DNA from: Prosthecobacter sp.
GTDB taxonomy: Bacteria > Verrucomicrobiota > Verrucomicrobiia > Verrucomicrobiales > Verrucomicrobiaceae
Length of the DNA: 64,000 nt
Assembly: GCF_021733925.1 (NCBI RefSeq)
Contig: NZ_JAIPJY010000022.1
Strand: one strand, 5' to 3'
Shown: piece after piece, positions 42,119 to 51,074 of the stretch
How positions within the stretch are numbered: position 1 is the stretch's first letter
Layout: each line of letters opens with the position of its first letter
Position numbers and translations under genes: made by a program
Notes under the pieces: model-generated
Seen by the model: only the letters and a program-made list of their open reading frames with translations
The model's database searches: none
What the model was told of the DNA's origin: nothing

Positions 42119-43012
42119 TTACGATTTTGCAACAACTTGCGCGGCGGCCAATTTCACTTCGTGGACGGACAAATCGGGCATTGAGTGTGTCGGATTCCGC
42201 AAAAACTGCACCCAGGGCTGGGGTGGGGACCAAATGGCGGGATCGGTGGGGCCGAACAGGAGCAGGGAGGGGACTCCGCATGCGGCGGCGAGATGGGAGA
42301 TGCCGCTGTCATGGCCGAAAAAGGCGGTGCAGGTGCTGAGGCGGGTGGCGAGTTCGGTCAGGGGGAGGGCGTGCCAGATGGGATGGCCGGTGGGTTGGAT
42401 GCCGCGTTCTTGTTCGGCTTCGCCGGTGATGAAGATGACCTCATTATTTGGGAATGAGTTGGCGACTTGGAGCCAGTTTTCGAGGGGCCAGTTTTTCTTT
42501 GGGGAGCCGCTGCCGACGTGGATGGCGATGCGGGGGTGGTTGGCGGGTTGGGGCTGGAAGTGGGCGCGGTGGAGGTGTTCGTCTTCGAGGAACATGGCGA
42601 GCTTTTCGAGGCCTTGGGCGAGTTGCTTGGAGGCGTGGGGGCCTTCGGGTTTTACGAGGGGGGAGCACTCGATGAGGGTTTTGACGCCGACGCGTTCGAG
42701 GCTGGCGCGGAAGTGGCCGTCGGGGTCGTAGAGGAAGGAGACGACGAGGTTGAAGCTGCAGAGGTGTTCGGCGAGGGCTTCGTCGATGGGGGCTGTTTTG
42801 GCGAACAGCGGGGCGATGGTGCGGTGCTCGAGGCTGCGGATGGTGTCGGCGAGGCCGGCGGTGCGGGCGAGTTCGGCGATGGCGGGGTAGCCGAGGACTT
42901 CGAGGTGGCAGCCGGGGATGGTTTCGCGCAGGAGGCGGAGGGCCGGGAGCGTGAGGATGAAGTCGCCGATGGCGCCGCCACGAATGACGAGGACACGGGG
43001 CTGGGGGTGCAT
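42119..43012 (-). CDS. Glycosyltransferase family 9 (ADP-heptose:LPS heptosyltransferase-like)
   Basis: IRGGAIGDFILTLP, HVGSGSPKKNW, GHDSGISHLAAA, LFGPT. Confidence 0.9.
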   Translation of the reverse strand: MHPQPRVLVIRGGAIGDFILTLPALRLLRETIPGCHLEVLGYPAIAELARTAGLADTIRSLEHRTIAPLFAKTAPIDEALAEHLCSFNLVVSFLYDPDGHFRASLERVGVKTLIECSPLVKPEGPHASKQLAQGLEKLAMFLEDEHLHRAHFQPQPANHPRIAIHVGSGSPKKNWPLENWLQVANSFPNNEVIFITGEAEQERGIQPTGHPIWHALPLTELATRLSTCTAFFGHDSGISHLAAACGVPSLLLFGPTDPAIWSPPQPWVQFLRNPTHSMPDLSVHEVKLAAAQVVAKS

Positions 43013-43602
43013 CAGTAGTACAGGATGGCCGCTGCGAGGAGGACGACGCCGTAGGCGATGCCGCCGTAGATGGCGAGATTCCAGCGCTGCGGCTTGGCGA
43101 TGAGGGTGTTCACCCAGTCGCGCATGAGGAAGGGCATGCCGATGAAGAACATGCCGACGATGATCCAGACGTAGGCGAGGATGGGGAGGAGCAGGCGGCT
43201 GGTCTGGGGCTGAAGGAAGGCGGCGGTGAGGACGGGGCCGGCGACGAGGAGCATGAGGGAACCGAGGGCGCGGACGGCGAGAAATTCCTTCACGTAGATG
43301 AGGACGCCGACGTAGCCGGCGGCGACGATCATCATGAACTTGTCGCGCATGTTGTAGAACTCACCCATGTCCATGTTGGCGAGGGCGAATTCGCTCCAGA
43401 GAAAGCCGATGGTGAGGAGGATGAGGCCCCAGACGTAGGTGCGGGGGAAGGCTTTGAGGAAGGCCTGGGTTTTGGCGGTGTTTTTGAGGGCCCAGCCATG
43501 GGAGAGGATGAGGGCCAGGGCGACGACGATGCCGGTGCCCTTGAGCGGTATGCCGCCGGTGGGTGCCAGGTGGTAGAGGTAGTCGTAGAGGTCTGGGAAC
43601 AT
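43012..43602 (-). CDS. Hypothetical membrane protein
   Basis: Hydrophobic ORF, TGATG-type overlap with the GT9 gene; start chosen at ATG 43602. Confidence 0.7.
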   Translation of the reverse strand: MFPDLYDYLYHLAPTGGIPLKGTGIVVALALILSHGWALKNTAKTQAFLKAFPRTYVWGLILLTIGFLWSEFALANMDMGEFYNMRDKFMMIVAAGYVGVLIYVKEFLAVRALGSLMLLVAGPVLTAAFLQPQTSRLLLPILAYVWIIVGMFFIGMPFLMRDWVNTLIAKPQRWNLAIYGGIAYGVVLLAAAILYY

Positions 43603-43689
43603 GCGCGGTGGGCTGGAAAAACGGGTGGCACAGGTGGCGCAGACCCTGCTGGTGCGCAAACGCGTTGTTCTGGATGGGGGGATCCGGAA

Positions 43690-44137
43690 TTGGTTGGCCG
43701 CAAAAGGGCGCAAAAAAAGAGGGGAGAAAAAGGGGAGATCCCGAAGGAGTGGTGGTGTTCGGGCGGGGGCCTGTTGAAGCAGGTGCCACCATTCTTGCTG
43801 TGGGGTAAGCGGAGAGATGGGTGGTGCGCGAGCGGAGAGACAGGATTAACAGGATGGCATGATTAACGGGATTAACGGAGTTGGGTGGCCGCAAAAAGGC
43901 GCAAAAACAGAGGGGAGAAAAAAGGGATTCCTGAAGGGACGGAAGTGTTGCGTGGTGGTGATGGAGTTTGGTCGGGGCCTGATGAAGGAGGTGCTGTGAG
44001 GTGAGCGGGAGGGGTGGGTGGTACGTGCGCAGATAGACAGGATTAACAGGATGGCATGATTAACGGGATTAACGGAGTTGGGTGGCCGCAAAAAAGGCGC
44101 AAAAAAGAGGGAAAAGAAAAAGGGGGATCTGGAAGGG
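43690..44137 (+). repeat. Degenerate tandem repeat, three units, period about 191-197 bp
   Basis: TTGG(T/G)TGGCCGCAAAA..GGCGCAAAAA..GAGGG at 43690, 43881, 44078; near-identical GACAGGATTAACAGGATGGCATGATTAACGGGATTAACGGAG block at 43839 and 44036. Confidence 0.9.
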
Positions 44138-44243
44138 ACGCGGGATTCTGCGGCAGCGAGATCTTTTGCTGCTGTTGATGCGTAAATCTTGGATTGAGGT
44201 TGCCTCGGCGCTGGGCAGGGGCAGTTTGAAGGATCGTTCACGC

Positions 44244-44795
44244 ATGAAAGAAAAAAAAGAAACCCTCCCGGCTTGGTACGTGGTGCATACGCGGCCGAAG
44301 TGCGAGCATATCGCGGCTTCGCTGATGGTGGGGCTGGAGGGGGTGGAGACGTACTGTCCGCGCATTCGGTTTCAGAAGAACACGCGGCGGGGCAAGGTGT
44401 GGTTCGTGGAGGCGCTGTTTCCGAGCTACTTTTTTGCGCGGTTCATTCCGAATGATTCGATGCGGGCGGTGAAGTACTCGCAGAGTGTCATTAAGGTGGT
44501 GGATTTTGGGGGGAATTTGACGTCGGTGCCGGACTCGGCCATCGCGGCGCTGAAGGCGGAGATGAAGGACATCGAAATTTGCGAGGTGGAGGTGGGCGTG
44601 AAGGTGGGGGATACGGTGGAGCTGACGGAGGGGCCGATGCGGGGGATGAAGGGGATTGTGAATGCGATGCTGACGGGCGTGGAGCGTGTGCGGATTCTGC
44701 TGGAGTTTTTGGGACGGGAGAATGCGGTGGAGGTGCCTCTGTCGAAGATATTGACGGAGCATACGCCACGGACAGTGCTTGCGGCGTCGCGGTGA
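44244..44795 (+). CDS. NusG paralog (RfaH/UpxY/LoaP-like antitermination factor)
   Basis: WYVVHTRP, EALFPSYFF, KVVDFG..VPD, VGDTVELTEGPMRG (KOW), RVRILLEFLGR. Confidence 0.9.
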   Translation: MKEKKETLPAWYVVHTRPKCEHIAASLMVGLEGVETYCPRIRFQKNTRRGKVWFVEALFPSYFFARFIPNDSMRAVKYSQSVIKVVDFGGNLTSVPDSAIAALKAEMKDIEICEVEVGVKVGDTVELTEGPMRGMKGIVNAMLTGVERVRILLEFLGRENAVEVPLSKILTEHTPRTVLAASR

Positions 44796-44836
44796 CCCGT
44801 TCTTCGCTAAAGCTTCGAAGGGCAAGCTGCGCTTGG

Positions 44837-44899
44837 GTGCCGCTGTCGAAGATTTTGACGGAGCATCAGCCGCGTGCGGTGATGGGGGCGTCGCGGTGA
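44837..44899 (+). other. Diverged duplicate of the last 21 codons of the NusG paralog
   Basis: VPLSKILTEHQPRAVMGASR* versus VPLSKILTEHTPRTVLAASR* at 44733-44795. Confidence 0.9.
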
Positions 44900-44974
44900 G
44901 GGTGGCCTACGGAACACGCGGAACAGACGGAAAATCAGACGAGGGTTGTTCTATTGTCAGTGCTGCTGAAGAGG

Positions 44975-46200
44975 GAGCCGGATTTGAACCACTGATCCAT
45001 TCTCCGTAGCAAGACTGCGAAGGATGAACTGGACACTGACTGACACTGATCTTGAGTCGGAATGCGGAATGTATTCAGGCTGAAGAGCAGATTTTTAACC
45101 ACTAATCGGACGCTAATAAGGCACTAATCAAGGCATTCAGAAATCCGGAATTTTGGATTGGTTTTTTGGGACTGGGCAGCGGGTGGGGGGCTTTGGTTTC
45201 GGCAAAGGAATGACTGAGTTTGGAGCTTGGGGAGGCGGTAGTTTTGCTGCTGTATTGCATACCAACCCCATCTTTCAGAATCTGTGACCACGGATCACTC
45301 GGATTGACACGGATGACTGAGGCTGAGGCTGACCCGCGCAATGGTTTTGATCCGTGCTGCTCGTGCTATCCGTGGTTCCATCTTCCCTGTTCAGTGAATC
45401 ATTCCACCCTGGCCTCATAACTCAATGCTCCGGGAGATAGAGCCGGATTTGAACCACTGACTGGACACTGACTGACACTGATCCTGAGTCGGAATGCGGA
45501 ATGAATTCAGGGTGATGAGCAGATTTTTAACCACTAATCGGACGCTAATAAGGCACTAATCAAGGCATTCAGAAATCCGGAATTTTGGATTGGTTTTTCG
45601 GGGACTGGGCAGCGGGCGGGGGGGGCTTTGGTTTCGGCAAAGGAATGGGTTGGCAATGGAATGCCTGAGTTGAGAACTTGGGGAGGCGGTTGTTTTGGCG
45701 GGAATTTGCAGCCTGGCCCCTTCTTCTCCTTCCAGAATTTCTGACCACGGATCACTCGGATTGACACGGATGACTGAGTCTGAAGCTGACCCGCTTAATG
45801 GTTTTGATCCGTGCTGCTCGTGCTATCCGTGGCTCCATCTTCCCTGTTCAGTGAGTGCCATTTCATTCTGGCCTCATTACTCAATGCTCCGGGAGATAGA
45901 GCCGGATTTGAACCACTGACTGACACTGATGCTGAGTCGGAGTCTGGGATTTTGGGAATGAATTCAGCGGTTTGAGAATGAGGAAGGCAGGAATTCAGGA
46001 ACCGGATTTCTTGGGAGGGGTTTGGTAAAAGATTTGGGGGTAAAAAGATTTTCCCGAACTTTTGGGTTTCTGAATTTTTTACCGCCCATTTTTTACCGCT
46101 TTATCTGGGGATCGAAGGACCACCCCTGTATAGATGAGCCGGATTTTAACGGCTGATCCATTCTCCGTCGCAAGACTGCGAAGGATGAATTGGACGCTGA
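44975..46200 (+). repeat. About 460-bp tandem repeat (2 full units plus 2 partial starts) built from short motif clusters
   Basis: GAGCCGGATTT(G/T)AAC at 44975, 45440, 45899, 46136; units 1 and 2 nearly identical apart from variable patches. Confidence 0.92.
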
Positions 46201-46263
46201 GATGATGCTGATTCAGAATTGGAATCTGGGCGGTGAACGACGGGGATGAGAGGGAAAAGCAGG

Positions 46264-46755
46264 TCAGGAAATTTCGCCGGAGGCTTTCAAGACGATGTTG
46301 CGGAGAGAGGGGCTGATCCAGAAGTGGGCCTCCTGCTCCAGGCGGTCGAGGAGCGGAGCGACTGCGGGAATGAGGGACTGTTCTTTGGCATCTCGAAGAA
46401 CTCCCAGAAGGCCTATCGTTCGAAGTCCAAGGGAAGACGCAGCGGCGCGGCCAGCCTGCTCGTCCATGAGGACGGCATCGGCCTGTCTTTCGACGGCGAG
46501 AGAGAGGGCGGCGACCTCTCCGGCATCCAACCTCGAGGAGGCCGTCAGCGCGGGCAGCAGTTGGAGTGGTGCTGCCTTTTCGATGAAGTGGGGGAAAGCC
46601 AGTCCCTGAAACCGTGCATCCTCTGCAGCGAGCCGCTGAAACTCCACGACGACCATGGTGGGAGCCAGGATCCTTCCATACAAAAGCCGCAGCAGCTCCT
46701 GCTGCCCGATGAGGCAGAGGTTGAGGACGACTGAGGTATCGGTGACGACGGTCAC
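46264..46755 (-). CDS. DUF3368 family PIN-domain protein (putative toxin)
   Basis: VVTDTSVVL, LDAGEVAAL, LMDEQAGR..GLRTIGLLGVL..AK; GTGA overlap with the upstream gene. Confidence 0.85.
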   Translation of the reverse strand: MTVVTDTSVVLNLCLIGQQELLRLLYGRILAPTMVVVEFQRLAAEDARFQGLAFPHFIEKAAPLQLLPALTASSRLDAGEVAALSLAVERQADAVLMDEQAGRAAASSLGLRTIGLLGVLRDAKEQSLIPAVAPLLDRLEQEAHFWISPSLRNIVLKASGEIS

Positions 46756-46991
46756 AGGGTGCGCAGGGCGCGAAGTGATTCCAAATCCTGCGCCCAACGT
46801 TCCTCATCATAAGAAGGGATGTGTCGAGCGAAGAGAGTCTGGTCGAAGGCATGACGGTCCATGCCAGCCATGCGGGCAGCCACGCCCCGTGAGACATGAC
46901 CTGCCGCATAAGCGCCGCAGGCGAGGTCGAGCAAGATTTCGGCCTCGCCCATCTCGGTGAGCGCGGGGTCATCTGGAAGCGTGATGGTCAT
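46752..46991 (-). CDS. UPF0175 family protein (putative antitoxin)
   Basis: 79 aa; LDLA..Y..GHVSRGVAARMAGMDR..F..L..DL. Confidence 0.8.
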   Translation of the reverse strand: MTITLPDDPALTEMGEAEILLDLACGAYAAGHVSRGVAARMAGMDRHAFDQTLFARHIPSYDEERWAQDLESLRALRTL

Positions 46992-47120
46992 GGATTGAGG
47001 ATAATGGAAAAGCAGGCGGAGGCAAGGCAACGTCTGCGGGGCAGGGCGTCGTTCAGGTGGGAATTGCAGGGTGAAGGGCAAGCTGCGCTTGGGGACCCAT
47101 TCTTCGCTAAAGCTACGAAG

Positions 47121-47347
47121 CACCTGAACTCAATGCGGCTGGATTGTTTAACGGAGGATACCCAGATGGAGTTTATTTGGCAGCCGTTTGCACGAACTAA
47201 GCTTCCCAGATTCCGGCTAAAGCCGGGACTACAAAACGTGTTCTGGCTGGTTTCAGATTTGGGGCGATGCGGAGCTTCCGGAACGGGCTAAAGCCCGAAC
47301 TACGTACTCAGAGGAGCCGGAAAAGTGCGAGGATGTTATTCGGGAGG
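47121..47347 (+). repeat. About 220-bp dispersed repeat with two REP palindromes; second copy at about 62487-62701
   Basis: CGAACTAAG..CCAGATTCCGGCTAAAGCCGG..CTTCCGGAACGGGCTAAAGCCCGAACTACGTACTCAGA..TTATTCGGGAG in both copies. Confidence 0.88.
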
Positions 47348-47521
47348 GCAAGAGCCCTTGGTGCGGGGCTGGCGGTGTGATCGCGGTGAAAAAGCGCCCG
47401 GACAGCTCCTGATACCGGACTGCGCTAGTCGTGGGTGTTTGCCATACGCGCAGAGACGGGTGGGCTGTCGCCACACCCATCCTACGTCCGGACGGGCACG
47501 TTAGCTGTTTGTCGCTGATTT

Positions 47522-48691
47522 TCAGCGCTGTTTCATGGCGGCTTGGAGCATAGAGTCGGTGATGGTGAGTTTTGGGGTGGGGCCGGTGTCGGCGAGCATG
47601 GCTTTGGCGAGGAGTTCGGAGAGGGGGCGGAGGATGCTGAAGTGGTCGGCGGCGGGGATCTCGAAGAAACGGACGTGGCGGCGGGAACGGGTTTTGCGCA
47701 TGAGGCGGAGGGCGTCGATGTTGCCGTCTTCGCCTTCGATGATGAAGGTGGGGGAGCTGAGGCCGTCGAGGCAGAGGATGGGGGCGCGGGGGGTGAGCTC
47801 GGCTTCGTTTTCGACATCGAAGGGGAGGATGTCCTGGCCATAGGCGCCGGTGCTGTGGACGGCGCCGAAGGCGACGGTGGCGCGAAGGCCGGTGGTGGAG
47901 CCGGCGACGAGGAGGGCGAGGGTGCCGCCGGTGCTGTGGCCGCCGAGGTAGATGCGGGCGGGATCGATGTAGGGCTGCTGCTTGAGCCAGGCGAGGGCGG
48001 CGATGACGTCGTCTGCCTCGCCGAGGAGGCCTTCTTTGAAGCCGGGGTTCGTATTTCCGCCGCGGAGGGAGGGGTAGAGCATGAGGAGGCCGGCCTGGCG
48101 GAAGGCGCTGGCGGACTGGTCGTTTTCGGGGTCGCCGGGCGGGAGGACGTCGGCGGAGATGCTGTTGCTGAAGCCGCCGATGAGCCAGATGATGGCGGGG
48201 TGCTTTTTGCCGTCTGCGGGATCTGCGGAGACATAGGCTGCCATGTCGCCGAGGGGGCCGGGATAGGTGACGAGCTTCATGCCGGTGTCGGGGGCGGGCG
48301 GGGCGGCGGGTTCGTTTTCGCGGTCTTTGCGGATGAGGTGGGTGTGGAAGGACTGCCGGTCGCGGGCGTGCTGGAGGGCGCGATCTTTTACGGCGGTGTC
48401 GGCCAGAGTGACGAAGTAGGGCTGGAGCATGAGGCCTGCGAGGGCGAGGGACCAAAAGAACACCGCGACGTAGCCGATGATGAGGCCTGAGAGGGCGATG
48501 CCGCTGCCGGTGAGGCTGGCGGCCTGCCTGCGGATGCGGGAGCGGCTGATGTGGCCGATGATGACGCCGATGAGGGCGGGGATGCCGAAGGCGATGAGTC
48601 CGATGATGCTGAGTAGCAGGGAGGCGACGGCGAGCTTGTCGGTGGAGCGACGATGGGCGACGGGCAGCGGGGGTGGGGTGCTGGGGGACAT
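47522..48691 (-). CDS. DUF4190-like N-terminal membrane domain fused to an alpha/beta hydrolase (S9-like)
   Basis: LAVASLLLSIIG..GVIIGHISRSRI..G.GIALSGLIIGY; IYLGGHSTGG nucleophile elbow; IIEGEDGN..ADH. Confidence 0.8.
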   Translation of the reverse strand: MSPSTPPPLPVAHRRSTDKLAVASLLLSIIGLIAFGIPALIGVIIGHISRSRIRRQAASLTGSGIALSGLIIGYVAVFFWSLALAGLMLQPYFVTLADTAVKDRALQHARDRQSFHTHLIRKDRENEPAAPPAPDTGMKLVTYPGPLGDMAAYVSADPADGKKHPAIIWLIGGFSNSISADVLPPGDPENDQSASAFRQAGLLMLYPSLRGGNTNPGFKEGLLGEADDVIAALAWLKQQPYIDPARIYLGGHSTGGTLALLVAGSTTGLRATVAFGAVHSTGAYGQDILPFDVENEAELTPRAPILCLDGLSSPTFIIEGEDGNIDALRLMRKTRSRRHVRFFEIPAADHFSILRPLSELLAKAMLADTGPTPKLTITDSMLQAAMKQR

Positions 48692-48802
48692 TGGATGGCG
48701 TATAAGCTGGTGGGGAGGTTTTGCCCAAACAAAAGGGTGGGGCTCGTGGAGGGGTGGCGGGTCAAACTGCGGCAGGTGACGGAATCTATTTCATGCCTGA
48801 TT

Positions 48803-48822
48803 CCGGCTAAAGCCGGTACTAC
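48803..48822 (-). repeat. GTAG-type REP palindrome, one of 8 co-oriented copies
   Basis: CCGGCTAAAGCCGGTACTAC; relatives at 47213, 47284, 50979, 59215, 59250, 62578, 62649. Confidence 0.85.
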
Positions 48823-49002
48823 AGAACAGCGCTGGGTGAGTCGATGGCTTCGGGGCTTTGAGAGGGGTTCATTCGAATTCAGTGCTGTGCAGATGTCAAC
48901 CCGGCCAAAAGGGAAGGAGGTGGAGTGCTGCGGCATGCTGGGCCTTGCATGTGGCGTGGGGTGGGGTAGCTGATTCTCTGCCCTTTTTTCCTTTTTTCTG
49001 CC

Positions 49003-50613
49003 ATGCTTACTCTTCGCGACGTCACCAAGACCTTTAACGCCCGCACGCTGTTTAGCGCTGCGTCGATGACCATCAACTATGGGGAGCGGGTGGCGCTGGT
49101 GGGGCCGAATGGGGCGGGGAAATCGACGTTGTTTTCGCTGATTTTGAAGACGGACACTCCGGATGCGGGTGAGGTGATCCGGGATGAGTGGACGACGGTG
49201 GGATTTCTGCCGCAGGAGAGTGAGCCGATTGGCAATGAGACGGTGCTGGAAGTGGCGACGGGCAAGGCGGGGGAGATTGAGGCGCTGGAGAAGATTTTGC
49301 GTGATTTTGAGGCTGTGGGTGATGTTTCCAGCCCGGAATACTTTGAGGCGCATGCGAAGCATGATGCGCTGCAGGACCCGCAGACTGAGGCGAAGGCGAA
49401 GCGCATCCTGAAGGGATTGGGATATAAGGAGGAGGATTTTTCGAGGCCGGCGCGTGAGTTTAGCGGTGGCTGGGTGATGCGTGCGCACATGACGCGGCTG
49501 CTGGTGATGGAGCCGGATCTGCTGCTGCTGGATGAGCCGACGAACCATCTGGACCTGCTGTCGCTGATGTGGTTCCGGAATTACCTGAAAAATTATCCGG
49601 GGGCGCTGCTGATCATCTCGCATGACCGTGACTTCATGGATGAGCTGGTGCAGCAGGTGTATGAGATCGAGGAGGGCAAGCTGCAGGCGTACCAGGGGAA
49701 CTACAGTGACTACCTGAAGCAGCGCGAGGAGAATTACGAGCGTGCGATGCAGTCGTACAAGAATCAGCAGAAGGAGATCGAGGCGATTCAGGATTTCATT
49801 GACCGGTTCCGGTCGGTGGCATCAAAGGCGTCCCAGGCGCAGAGCCGTGAGAAGCAGCTGGCGAAGATGGACAAGCTGGACAAGCCGCGGCCGCTGCGGA
49901 AGGGCTTCCGCTTTAATTTCCCGCAGCCGCAGCGGAGCGGGCAGCGGCTGATCGCGCTGACGGACATTCATCAGGCGTATGGGACGAAGAAGGTGTACAC
50001 GGGGCTGGATCTGGAAGTGGAGCGTGGTGAGCGGACGGTGCTGGTGGGGCCGAACGGGAGCGGGAAATCGACGCTGATCAAGATTTTGGCGGGTGAGGTG
50101 CCGTTTCAGAAGGGTGAGCGCAGGCTGGGGACGAATGTGAAGCTGGGGTATTTTTCGCAGCATCGGGCGGATACTTTGGACCCGGACTGCAGTGTGCTGG
50201 AGGAGCTGAAGCGTGTGGCGCCTGAGCTGCGTGAGGATGAGGCGCGGAGCATTCTGGGGAGCTTCCTGTTCAAGCGTGAGGACGTGCACAAGAAGTGCCG
50301 GGTGCTGAGCGGTGGTGAGAAGAGCCGGGTGAACTTGGTGAAGTTCTTGGTGGATCCGCCGAACCTGCTGCTGATGGACGAGCCGACGACGCATCTGGAC
50401 ATCTGGGCGATTGAGGGGCTGATTCTGGCGCTGCAGAAGTTTGAGGGGACGCTGGTGTTCATCAGCCATGACGTGCATTTCATTCGGTCGCTGGCGACGA
50501 AGGTGCTGCATATTGTGGATGGGAAGGTGACGGCGTATTCGGGGGACTATGATTACTACCTGCAGAAGACGGGCGCGGAGGAGAATGCGCGGGCGGCGGT
50601 GGTGGCGGGGTAG
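49003..50613 (+). CDS. ABC-F family ATPase
   Basis: Two NBDs (GPNGAGKST, FSGGW, LLLDEPTNHL; GPNGSGKST, LSGGE, DEPTTHL), interdomain linker, no TM segment. Confidence 0.95.
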   Translation: MLTLRDVTKTFNARTLFSAASMTINYGERVALVGPNGAGKSTLFSLILKTDTPDAGEVIRDEWTTVGFLPQESEPIGNETVLEVATGKAGEIEALEKILRDFEAVGDVSSPEYFEAHAKHDALQDPQTEAKAKRILKGLGYKEEDFSRPAREFSGGWVMRAHMTRLLVMEPDLLLLDEPTNHLDLLSLMWFRNYLKNYPGALLIISHDRDFMDELVQQVYEIEEGKLQAYQGNYSDYLKQREENYERAMQSYKNQQKEIEAIQDFIDRFRSVASKASQAQSREKQLAKMDKLDKPRPLRKGFRFNFPQPQRSGQRLIALTDIHQAYGTKKVYTGLDLEVERGERTVLVGPNGSGKSTLIKILAGEVPFQKGERRLGTNVKLGYFSQHRADTLDPDCSVLEELKRVAPELREDEARSILGSFLFKREDVHKKCRVLSGGEKSRVNLVKFLVDPPNLLLMDEPTTHLDIWAIEGLILALQKFEGTLVFISHDVHFIRSLATKVLHIVDGKVTAYSGDYDYYLQKTGAEENARAAVVAG

Positions 50614-51074
50614 GGCGGAAGCAAAATTGCAAACTGAGAACTGAAAACTGGGAATTGTAAATGAGCCGGAGGGGGAGGTCTTCGCGTGAGCGTGAGGGAT
50701 GCGACTTTGCGGTGGCGCTGGGCTCATCTCGGCGGAGCGAGATGGCTACTGTACCGGGGCGGAGGAGAATGCGCGGGCGGCGGTGGTGGCTGGTTAAGAA
50801 ATGACGAATGAGTAAATCCGAATGACGAATAACGGAGCCGCCAGAAGGCGGAGGAGGTGGACGCAAAGAGGGGCAAAAAGATGGGACTCTTTTTTTGAGA
50901 ATCTGCTTTGCGCTTTTTGCGACTGACTTCCTACGGAAGAACGGGGCGGAAGGGCGGTTGGTGGACGTTCGTCCGGAACCGCCTAAAGGCGGAACTACAA
51001 TACTTACGCTGGGTTTGCGGGGTCGGGGAGCAGGTGTGCGCCTTCGGAAACCGCACACGGAGTGTGCGGACCAC
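50614..51074 (+). repeat. Mosaic repeat region containing a synonymous duplicate of the ABC-F 3' end (50753-50797), two heptamer arrays and three REP-like palindromes
   Basis: AAACTGA-type array 50624-50658; REP 50725-50749; AATGACG-type array 50800-50834; REPs 50979-50998 and 51051-51074. Confidence 0.85.

Follow-up and report, generated by a model that had tools for sequence, protein, structure and literature searches.

Why should a gene be followed, a few dozen nucleotides beyond its stop codon, by a second and diverged version of its own end? This arrangement is found at a NusG-like gene in a window (the whole 64,000-nt stretch of DNA analysed) from the draft genome of a Prosthecobacter sp. 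(contig NZ_JAIPJY010000022.1). That genome is referred to here as G000, and the locus was followed through it and through a comparison set of 105 genomes of the genus. The structure is observed directly in the window and consists of the following features:

44244..44795, plus strand: NusG-paralog coding sequence, an open reading frame of 183 aa from the ATG at 44244, comprising an NGN domain, then KOW, then a 13-residue extension
44733..44795, plus strand: copy 1, the in-frame tail (residues 164-183), ending ...TEHTPRTVLAASR, plus TGA
44796..44836, no strand assigned: the 41-nt insert, a module of a dispersed REP-like family with 24 blastn-short matches in its own genome
44837..44899, plus strand: copy 2, the orphan tail, ending ...TEHQPRAVMGASR plus TGA, at an offset of 104 nt and in frame +2 relative to copy 1

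A repeat search of the window recovered the two tails as direct repeat family D9 (44732-44795 versus 44836-44899; 83% identity, 53/64 nt). Aligning the copies codon by codon (44733-44795 with 44837-44899) gives 52 matches over 63 nt, and the 11 differences, distributed 3/2/6 over the first, second and third codon positions, amount to four synonymous and four replacement codon changes, with TGA closing both copies. The bases, peptides and both stop codons are thus as described in the initial annotation, which had reported a 63-nt tail repeat with four silent and four replacement codons. The likeness is well above what shuffling produces, as the best 64-nt window at offsets of 64-300 in 100 shuffles of positions 43000-47500 gave at most 37 matches versus 53 for the real pair. 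Conservation is strongest at the two ends of the repeat, with two mismatches in the first 31 nt and none in the last 13 nt, leaving a variable core between them. The likeness stops exactly at the stop codons and the sequence beyond each copy differs, so the copies do not form a simple tandem unit. Within the genome, both tails match this locus alone, and there is no third copy on the contig. Copy 2 is an orphan 3′ end, out of frame with the gene and predicted to be untranslated.

It had also been proposed that copy 2 provides an alternative C-terminus, and this reading is not supported: the copy lies in frame +2, like scars occur at unrelated genes across the genome (see below), and the spacing between tails keeps no common frame from species to species. 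Measured start to start, the tails of the six orphan-bearing species are 104 (G000), 124, 133, 191, 262, 352 and 529 nt apart, values that are mixed modulo 3, and access to the second tail by read-through or frameshifting is ruled out by the 104-nt offset together with these inconsistent spacings. Other candidate explanations were also rejected. A diversity-generating retroelement with template and variable repeats does not fit differing sites that involve all base classes (A at two of the 11 sites in copy 2 and at five in copy 1), an origin of the second tail from a paralog does not fit a single-copy gene with both tails confined to this locus, and a small intron or known RNA at the insert was discarded with no Rfam match of note. 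A search for a terminator pattern in and after the insert found none.

The expressed gene was indeed a NusG paralog, as first suggested. Its product matched the NGN domain (Pfam PF02357, 47.7 bits versus a cut-off of 22.2, E 2.2e-12, residues 10-103), while every score against the Pfam KOW models fell under its cut-off; the KOW region is nevertheless covered, to residue 167-169, when the product is aligned with NusG and RfaH structures or with the RfaH profile. Scores against the NCBIfam subfamily models were all below threshold (RfaH 84.7 versus 144.5, UpxY 58.3 versus 100, LoaP 55.6 versus 125), as was that against the NCBIfam NusG model. The housekeeping nusG is encoded elsewhere, on contig C98, where it scores 180.8 bits against TIGR00922, above the cut-off, compared with 44.8 bits for the window gene. 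The paralog is single-copy in its own genome (a draft of 127 contigs), and database entries in its 90% cluster carry the name Prosthecobacter sp. Because the product carries an NGN match, scores below the cut-offs of the subfamilies, is accompanied by a separate housekeeping nusG and is single-copy, the window gene is classed from these profile comparisons as a specialised NusG paralog belonging to no named subfamily (RfaH, UpxY or LoaP).

The duplicated segment starts at V164, in the last KOW strand, and the four replaced residues (174, 177, 179 and 180) all lie beyond the part alignable to NusG and RfaH, inside the 13-residue extension. The earlier suggestion that recombination between the copies would change the KOW-domain tail therefore stands in part: exchange would join the other tail to the gene in frame, but the residues replaced lie past the KOW fold. 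With four residues changed, all in the extension beyond that fold, the functional effect on the protein is likely to be small.

The 41-nt insert between the copies belongs to a repeat family whose 21-nt core occurs as 15 exact copies on 13 contigs of the genome. It holds short self-complementary stretches and a short hairpin is predicted, but the fold of 44780-44850 equals that of shuffled sequences (z = -0.2), and a strong palindrome at the insert was rejected on this basis. The description of the insert as palindromic and REP-like is thus upheld for the dispersed repeat family and not for the palindrome, which is weak. Like REP and BIME elements, the insert is short, dispersed and extragenic, follows immediately on stop codons and combines with other modules into mosaics; it differs from them in its weak hairpin and in the modest number of exact cores. 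We know of no case in which REP insertion duplicates a target of ~60 nt. In a Prosthecobacter MAG (L090:2990-3064), the NusG paralog has lost its own stop codon and runs into the repeat module, which supplies the stop of a tail ending ...AAKDPVLR.

The NusG paralog was present in 98 of the 105 genus genomes, most of which carry a single tail (G022, G001, G067, G103 and G017 among them). Extra tail copies, with one to three orphans each, were found in G000, G002, G006, G043 (truncated), G046 (three copies and a fragment) and G048, and this recurrence within the genus is again a direct observation. All six orphan-bearing species fall within one 17-species subclade of the gene-body tree (support 100/99). 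It is hardly credible that the layout is an assembly artefact in which two strain alleles of a metagenome-assembled genome were stitched in tandem. All the genomes are drafts (127 contigs for G000), and an NN gap lies inside the array of G046, leaving the copy number of that species uncertain, but the layout recurs in six independent assemblies with different spacers and junctions, the exact protein is recorded on three contigs (from NCBI, Logan and ENA sources), and the spacer is a defined repeat module rather than a chimeric join.

The orphans have the quality of coding alleles. Frame and stop codon are kept in six of seven, and comparison with homologs of the genus, as the initial annotation had proposed, identified the second tail of the window as a real allele, the one that G022 and G001 express, and showed the first to be silent in G048. 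Between the orphan of G000 (...QPRAVMGASR) and the tail that G022 expresses there are 4 nt differences over 18 codons, all synonymous. The expressed tail of G000 (...TPRTVLAASR) is expressed also in G002, G043, G067 and G103 and is present as a silent copy in G048, where it differs from the expressed TPRTVLAASR tails by 4-5 nt, all synonymous. Similarly, all six codon differences between copies 1 and 2 of G046 are synonymous. Decay in place should give mostly replacement changes and indels, and for this reason the orphans look as though they diverged while expressed, in different lineages; their resemblance to alleles is itself observed directly.

These observations bear on an ordinary alternative: a local tandem duplication could have arisen in the repeat-rich spacer through slippage or unequal crossing-over, with the downstream copy then drifting as a fragment of a pseudogene. 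Duplications classically join at REP-type repeats, and G046 is truly tandem-amplified, with the same flank behind each tail copy. In G000, G002, G006 and G048, however, the sequence after the two copies differs and the likeness stops at the stop codon, and drift is hard to reconcile with orphans that keep frame and stop, differ from expressed alleles almost solely by synonymous changes and equal the alleles expressed in other species. A further case at mutL, described below, points the same way, with 15 synonymous codon changes and amino-acid differences solely in the last two residues. We regard this explanation as unlikely.

Tail types do not track the gene-body tree. Among 13 alignable proteins of the 90% cluster, four tail types sit on bodies with 147-153 of 154 residues identical. 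G048 is the nearest relative of G000 by gene body (95.8%), yet it expresses a tail ending ...KPRAVMGAR and carries ...TPRTVLAASR as its orphan, so that the arrangements of the two genomes are reciprocal. As a dependable tree cannot be built from such short tails, nearest-neighbour counts were used for them. NusG tails have evidently been swapped during the evolution of the genus. A recombination breakpoint was sought in the gene body of G000, where the differences from close relatives are spread evenly and none was evident. A metagenome scan for the switched allele yielded two single-tail contigs, both from another species (89% identity), and the contigs of the 90% cluster likewise represent other species (92-96% nucleotide identity) and not strain variants.

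The module in one pair of species, and the start of the orphan in another, are more alike than the genes that precede them. The 41-nt module is identical (41/41) in G000 and G006, where it lies directly 5′ of the orphan tail, compared with 89.1% identity between the gene bodies and ~83% between the orphan tails, and the orphans of G000 and G002 share 48 of their first 49 nt, compared with 88.9% for the gene body. Both comparisons are signs of recent horizontal spread. The orphans are joined to their upstream sequence in at least three ways, with the module directly before GTGCC, with the module before AATGCGG and with a third type of left junction in G002 and G046; microhomology such as GAATG occurs at some of these junctions. 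The junction of G000 is common to G006 and G046 and not to its nearest relatives G048 and G043. As junction types do not follow the body tree, several events or transfers are needed.

The surroundings of the locus differ sharply on its two sides. Upstream, the flank is conserved in the genus and includes a GT9 glycosyltransferase and adenylate kinase. The downstream flank (44796-49002) is hypervariable (compared at loci L007, L009, L029, L090 and L091) and in the window includes repeats, a toxin-antitoxin (TA)-like DUF3368/UPF0175 pair and an alpha/beta hydrolase, ahead of an ABC-F gene that was the ancestral downstream neighbour:

46264..46985, minus strand: TA-like pair, a DUF3368 PIN-like gene and a UPF0175 gene (Pfam), in the variable zone downstream
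47073..47120, no strand assigned: circularly permuted second copy of the 41-nt module, beyond the TA pair (repeat families D13 and D17)
49003..50613, plus strand: ABC-F ATPase gene (Pfam), the ancestral downstream neighbour of the NusG paralog
50753..50797, plus strand: ABC-F orphan tail (last 14 codons), 184 nt past the expressed end, with identical amino acids and synonymous differences

The ABC-F gene follows the NusG paralog at a distance of 12 nt in G007 and G012 and of ~300 nt in G120, while elsewhere in the genus the flank holds a CN-hydrolase and agmatine deiminase-like pair, or a DNA methylase and a UPF0175 gene. In G043, the orthologous DUF3368/UPF0175 pair abuts the truncated orphan tail. 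The orphan tail of the ABC-F gene is a sister case of the NusG-paralog scar. Tandem repeats are found on both sides of the gene, with three ~195-nt units in a divergent region upstream (43685-44124; families D3 and D4) and two ~432-459-nt units of shorter repeat modules downstream of the orphan tail (45028-45950; families D1, D2 and D5-D7).

Such a flank might be expected if the two tails were the attL and attR remnants of a site-specific element that targeted the gene's 3′ end and has since lost its interior. The prophage element e14 and phage 21 use icd of E. coli for site-specific integration; there the element supplies a substitute, mostly synonymously diverged 3′ end and pushes the native one downstream, where it persists as a pseudo-copy. 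At the NusG paralog, what follows the gene is hypervariable among species (a TA pair, hydrolase or methylase, or the ABC-F gene directly), an element-borne substitute end under coding selection would stop at the stop codon, and the genome encodes 11 tyrosine recombinases (PF00589). None of the 11 is on the window's contig (C19), however, and no integrase or transposase was found between the NusG paralog and the ABC-F gene (44796-49003). The copies are 41 nt apart instead of bracketing the 4-kb variable zone, with no third copy on the contig, and the left junctions differ between species. We consider such an origin very unlikely. The present locus shares with e14 and phage 21 at icd the substitute gene end and the displaced downstream pseudo-copy, but here there is no integrase or element body, and the copies do not lie at prophage ends.

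The scar is not restricted to the window. In a screen of the genome, in which the last 75 nt of every open reading frame of at least 120 codons were compared with the 1.5 kb downstream, matches included the ABC-F gene of the window, mutL and several large genes, so that sister cases across the genome are observed directly. Over the credible cases, synonymous codon differences outnumbered replacements by ~65 to 24, a ratio in which crude boundary calls inflate the replacements. No integrase was found in or next to any insert examined, and no common core shared by the other duplicated gene ends was evident; both results weigh further against the remnants of a site-specific element.

The clearest of these cases was mutL (L053; contig C109, plus strand, 82432-83771), whose last 258 nt occur twice, on either side of a 782-nt insert with two small membrane-like open reading frames. 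Of the 19 differences between the copies, 17 are silent and at third codon positions; the other two, the last in the sequence, alter the two terminal residues. Over a block of seven sites the expressed copy agrees fully with the distant G017/G014 lineage, and the orphan resembles close relatives; because of these two matches, the expressed end of mutL is taken to be partly foreign and the orphan native. G063 also has a short second mutL tail. At three other loci, a TA-like cassette separates the expressed end of a gene from an orphan copy of the final 56-62 nt:

L050, C103:65021-66413: Fic/Doc cassette
L051, C75:172860-174328: PIN cassette
L052, C14:8912-10345: PIN cassette

Other spacers between gene ends and orphan copies consist of a ~200-nt dispersed repeat or a single small gene. 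The repeat, which is MITE-like and contains no open reading frame, occupies this position on C88, C108 and C49, and on C49 the apparent gene end is itself part of it. Many tail echoes at a recurring offset of ~1026-1071 nt were seen on C109, C14, C80, C66, C56, C70 and C41, each enclosing a single small gene, the kind of which varies.

The genome-wide distribution also bears on whether the downstream tails form a selected system of silent cassettes that are moved into the expressed position and so diversify the C-terminal extension of the NusG paralog, in the manner of pilE/pilS or Rhs/CDI. Several observations would suit such a system, namely the conserved flanks around a variable core (two mismatches in the first 31 nt, identity in the last 13), the intact state of six of seven orphans, the reciprocal arrangements in G000 and G048, the presence of orphans in 6 of 17 subclade species and the near-identical proteins with four tail types. 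Against it, the same layout occurs at unrelated housekeeping genes and so extends beyond this protein, the residues that vary fall outside what can be aligned to solved NusG and RfaH structures, the tail spacings share no frame and no recombinase gene lies nearby. Moreover, the repeats are direct, so that reciprocal exchange deletes the cassette and exchange by deletion runs one way. The locus resembles Rhs/CDI orphan modules and pilS in having silent 3′ segments downstream of an expressed gene and short homology allowing exchange; in those systems, however, a functional domain is varied, with immunity genes or conversion machinery, whereas here variation is confined to a short stretch past the fold and the scar is common to many genes of the genome. 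Nothing points to programmed tail switching, and a selected cassette system is highly improbable.

Copy 2 instead probably arose by a process of the kind termed ‘insertion with long target duplication’, in which DNA of a relative recombined into the gene end. Insertions of this kind are reportedly described by Nobusato et al. in 2000. An insertion with a duplicated target, as opposed to a tandem unit of the form t-X-t-X, is favoured because the likeness ends at the stop codons and the flanks differ. The published class comprises restriction-modification genes in many bacteria, flanked by repeats of 46 to ~420 bp, some of which overlap gene 3′ ends (PMC2853133). Class members carry restriction and modification genes in the insert, as the defining criterion of that study, have no mobility genes at the insert and can be amplified via the repeats (PMC2853133; Furuta, Abe and Kobayashi 2010, Nucleic Acids Res 38:2428).

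The likeness of the NusG-paralog locus to this class is considerable. It has direct repeats of >30 bp (63/64 nt here) around an insert without a transposase or integrase, and the repeat is single-copy at the same site in relatives without the insert. The repeats overlap gene 3′ ends, and flanking repeats of this kind can amplify the unit. Addiction-type selfish cargo is typical of the class, a role filled by the TA pairs at three other loci of this genome. The locus differs in that its cargo is a 41-nt non-coding module and not restriction-modification genes, in that the copies are diverged alleles (83%) and not near-identical, and in that one gene has been struck in six species and at more than one type of junction. 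The cargo, 41 nt without a gene, is unlike the published cases and counts against the assignment, although it may represent a remnant; the distribution of junction types, which calls for several events or transfers, counts against it too.

Both the donor and the route of recombination are inferred from these comparisons. The donor would be a related Prosthecobacter lineage that brought its own version of the last ~63 nt of the gene together with a short repeat module. Entry could have occurred through a Campbell-type single crossover of a small circle, or through a homologous crossover combined with an illegitimate join at microhomology, and either route would leave two tail alleles adjacent, one in frame and expressed and the other displaced. 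The position of the crossover would then decide which allele is expressed, and this could account for the reciprocal arrangements of G000 and G048. A crossover near the 5′ edge of the homology would place the donor tail in frame and displace the native one (as proposed for mutL and plausibly for G000), while with a crossover near the 3′ edge the native tail would stay in expression and the donor tail would become the orphan (plausibly G048). Once in place, the direct repeats could recombine with each other and amplify the unit, as in G046, or delete it, fusing the gene to the other tail. A ComEC homologue is present in the genome, although this gene is near-universal and so no proof of competence.

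A broader possibility, which we advance tentatively and with some doubt, is that small cassettes (repeat modules, TA pairs and small genes) move among Prosthecobacter without integrases, with homology provided by the final 40-260 nt of conserved genes. A circle would be excised by recombination between tail repeats, taken up by a relative and re-inserted by a single crossover; each round would leave a spare end of coding quality and would at times swap the expressed tail, and the end of the NusG paralog would be a hot spot of this movement.

Taken alone, the locus is a recombination scar that probably matters little to the protein, and its value is that of a well-resolved example. The scar at the NusG-paralog tail belongs to a known kind, and it gains interest from recurring at this gene and from being abundant in the genome. 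For annotation, it carries the warning that tail echoes are not to be equated with alternative exons or recoding signals. For the genus, the process appears unusually frequent, with gene 3′ ends duplicated around small inserts and the copies resembling alleles of different lineages, and it offers a sequence-level handle on how accessory DNA, TA cassettes included, may enter these genomes without transposases or integrases.
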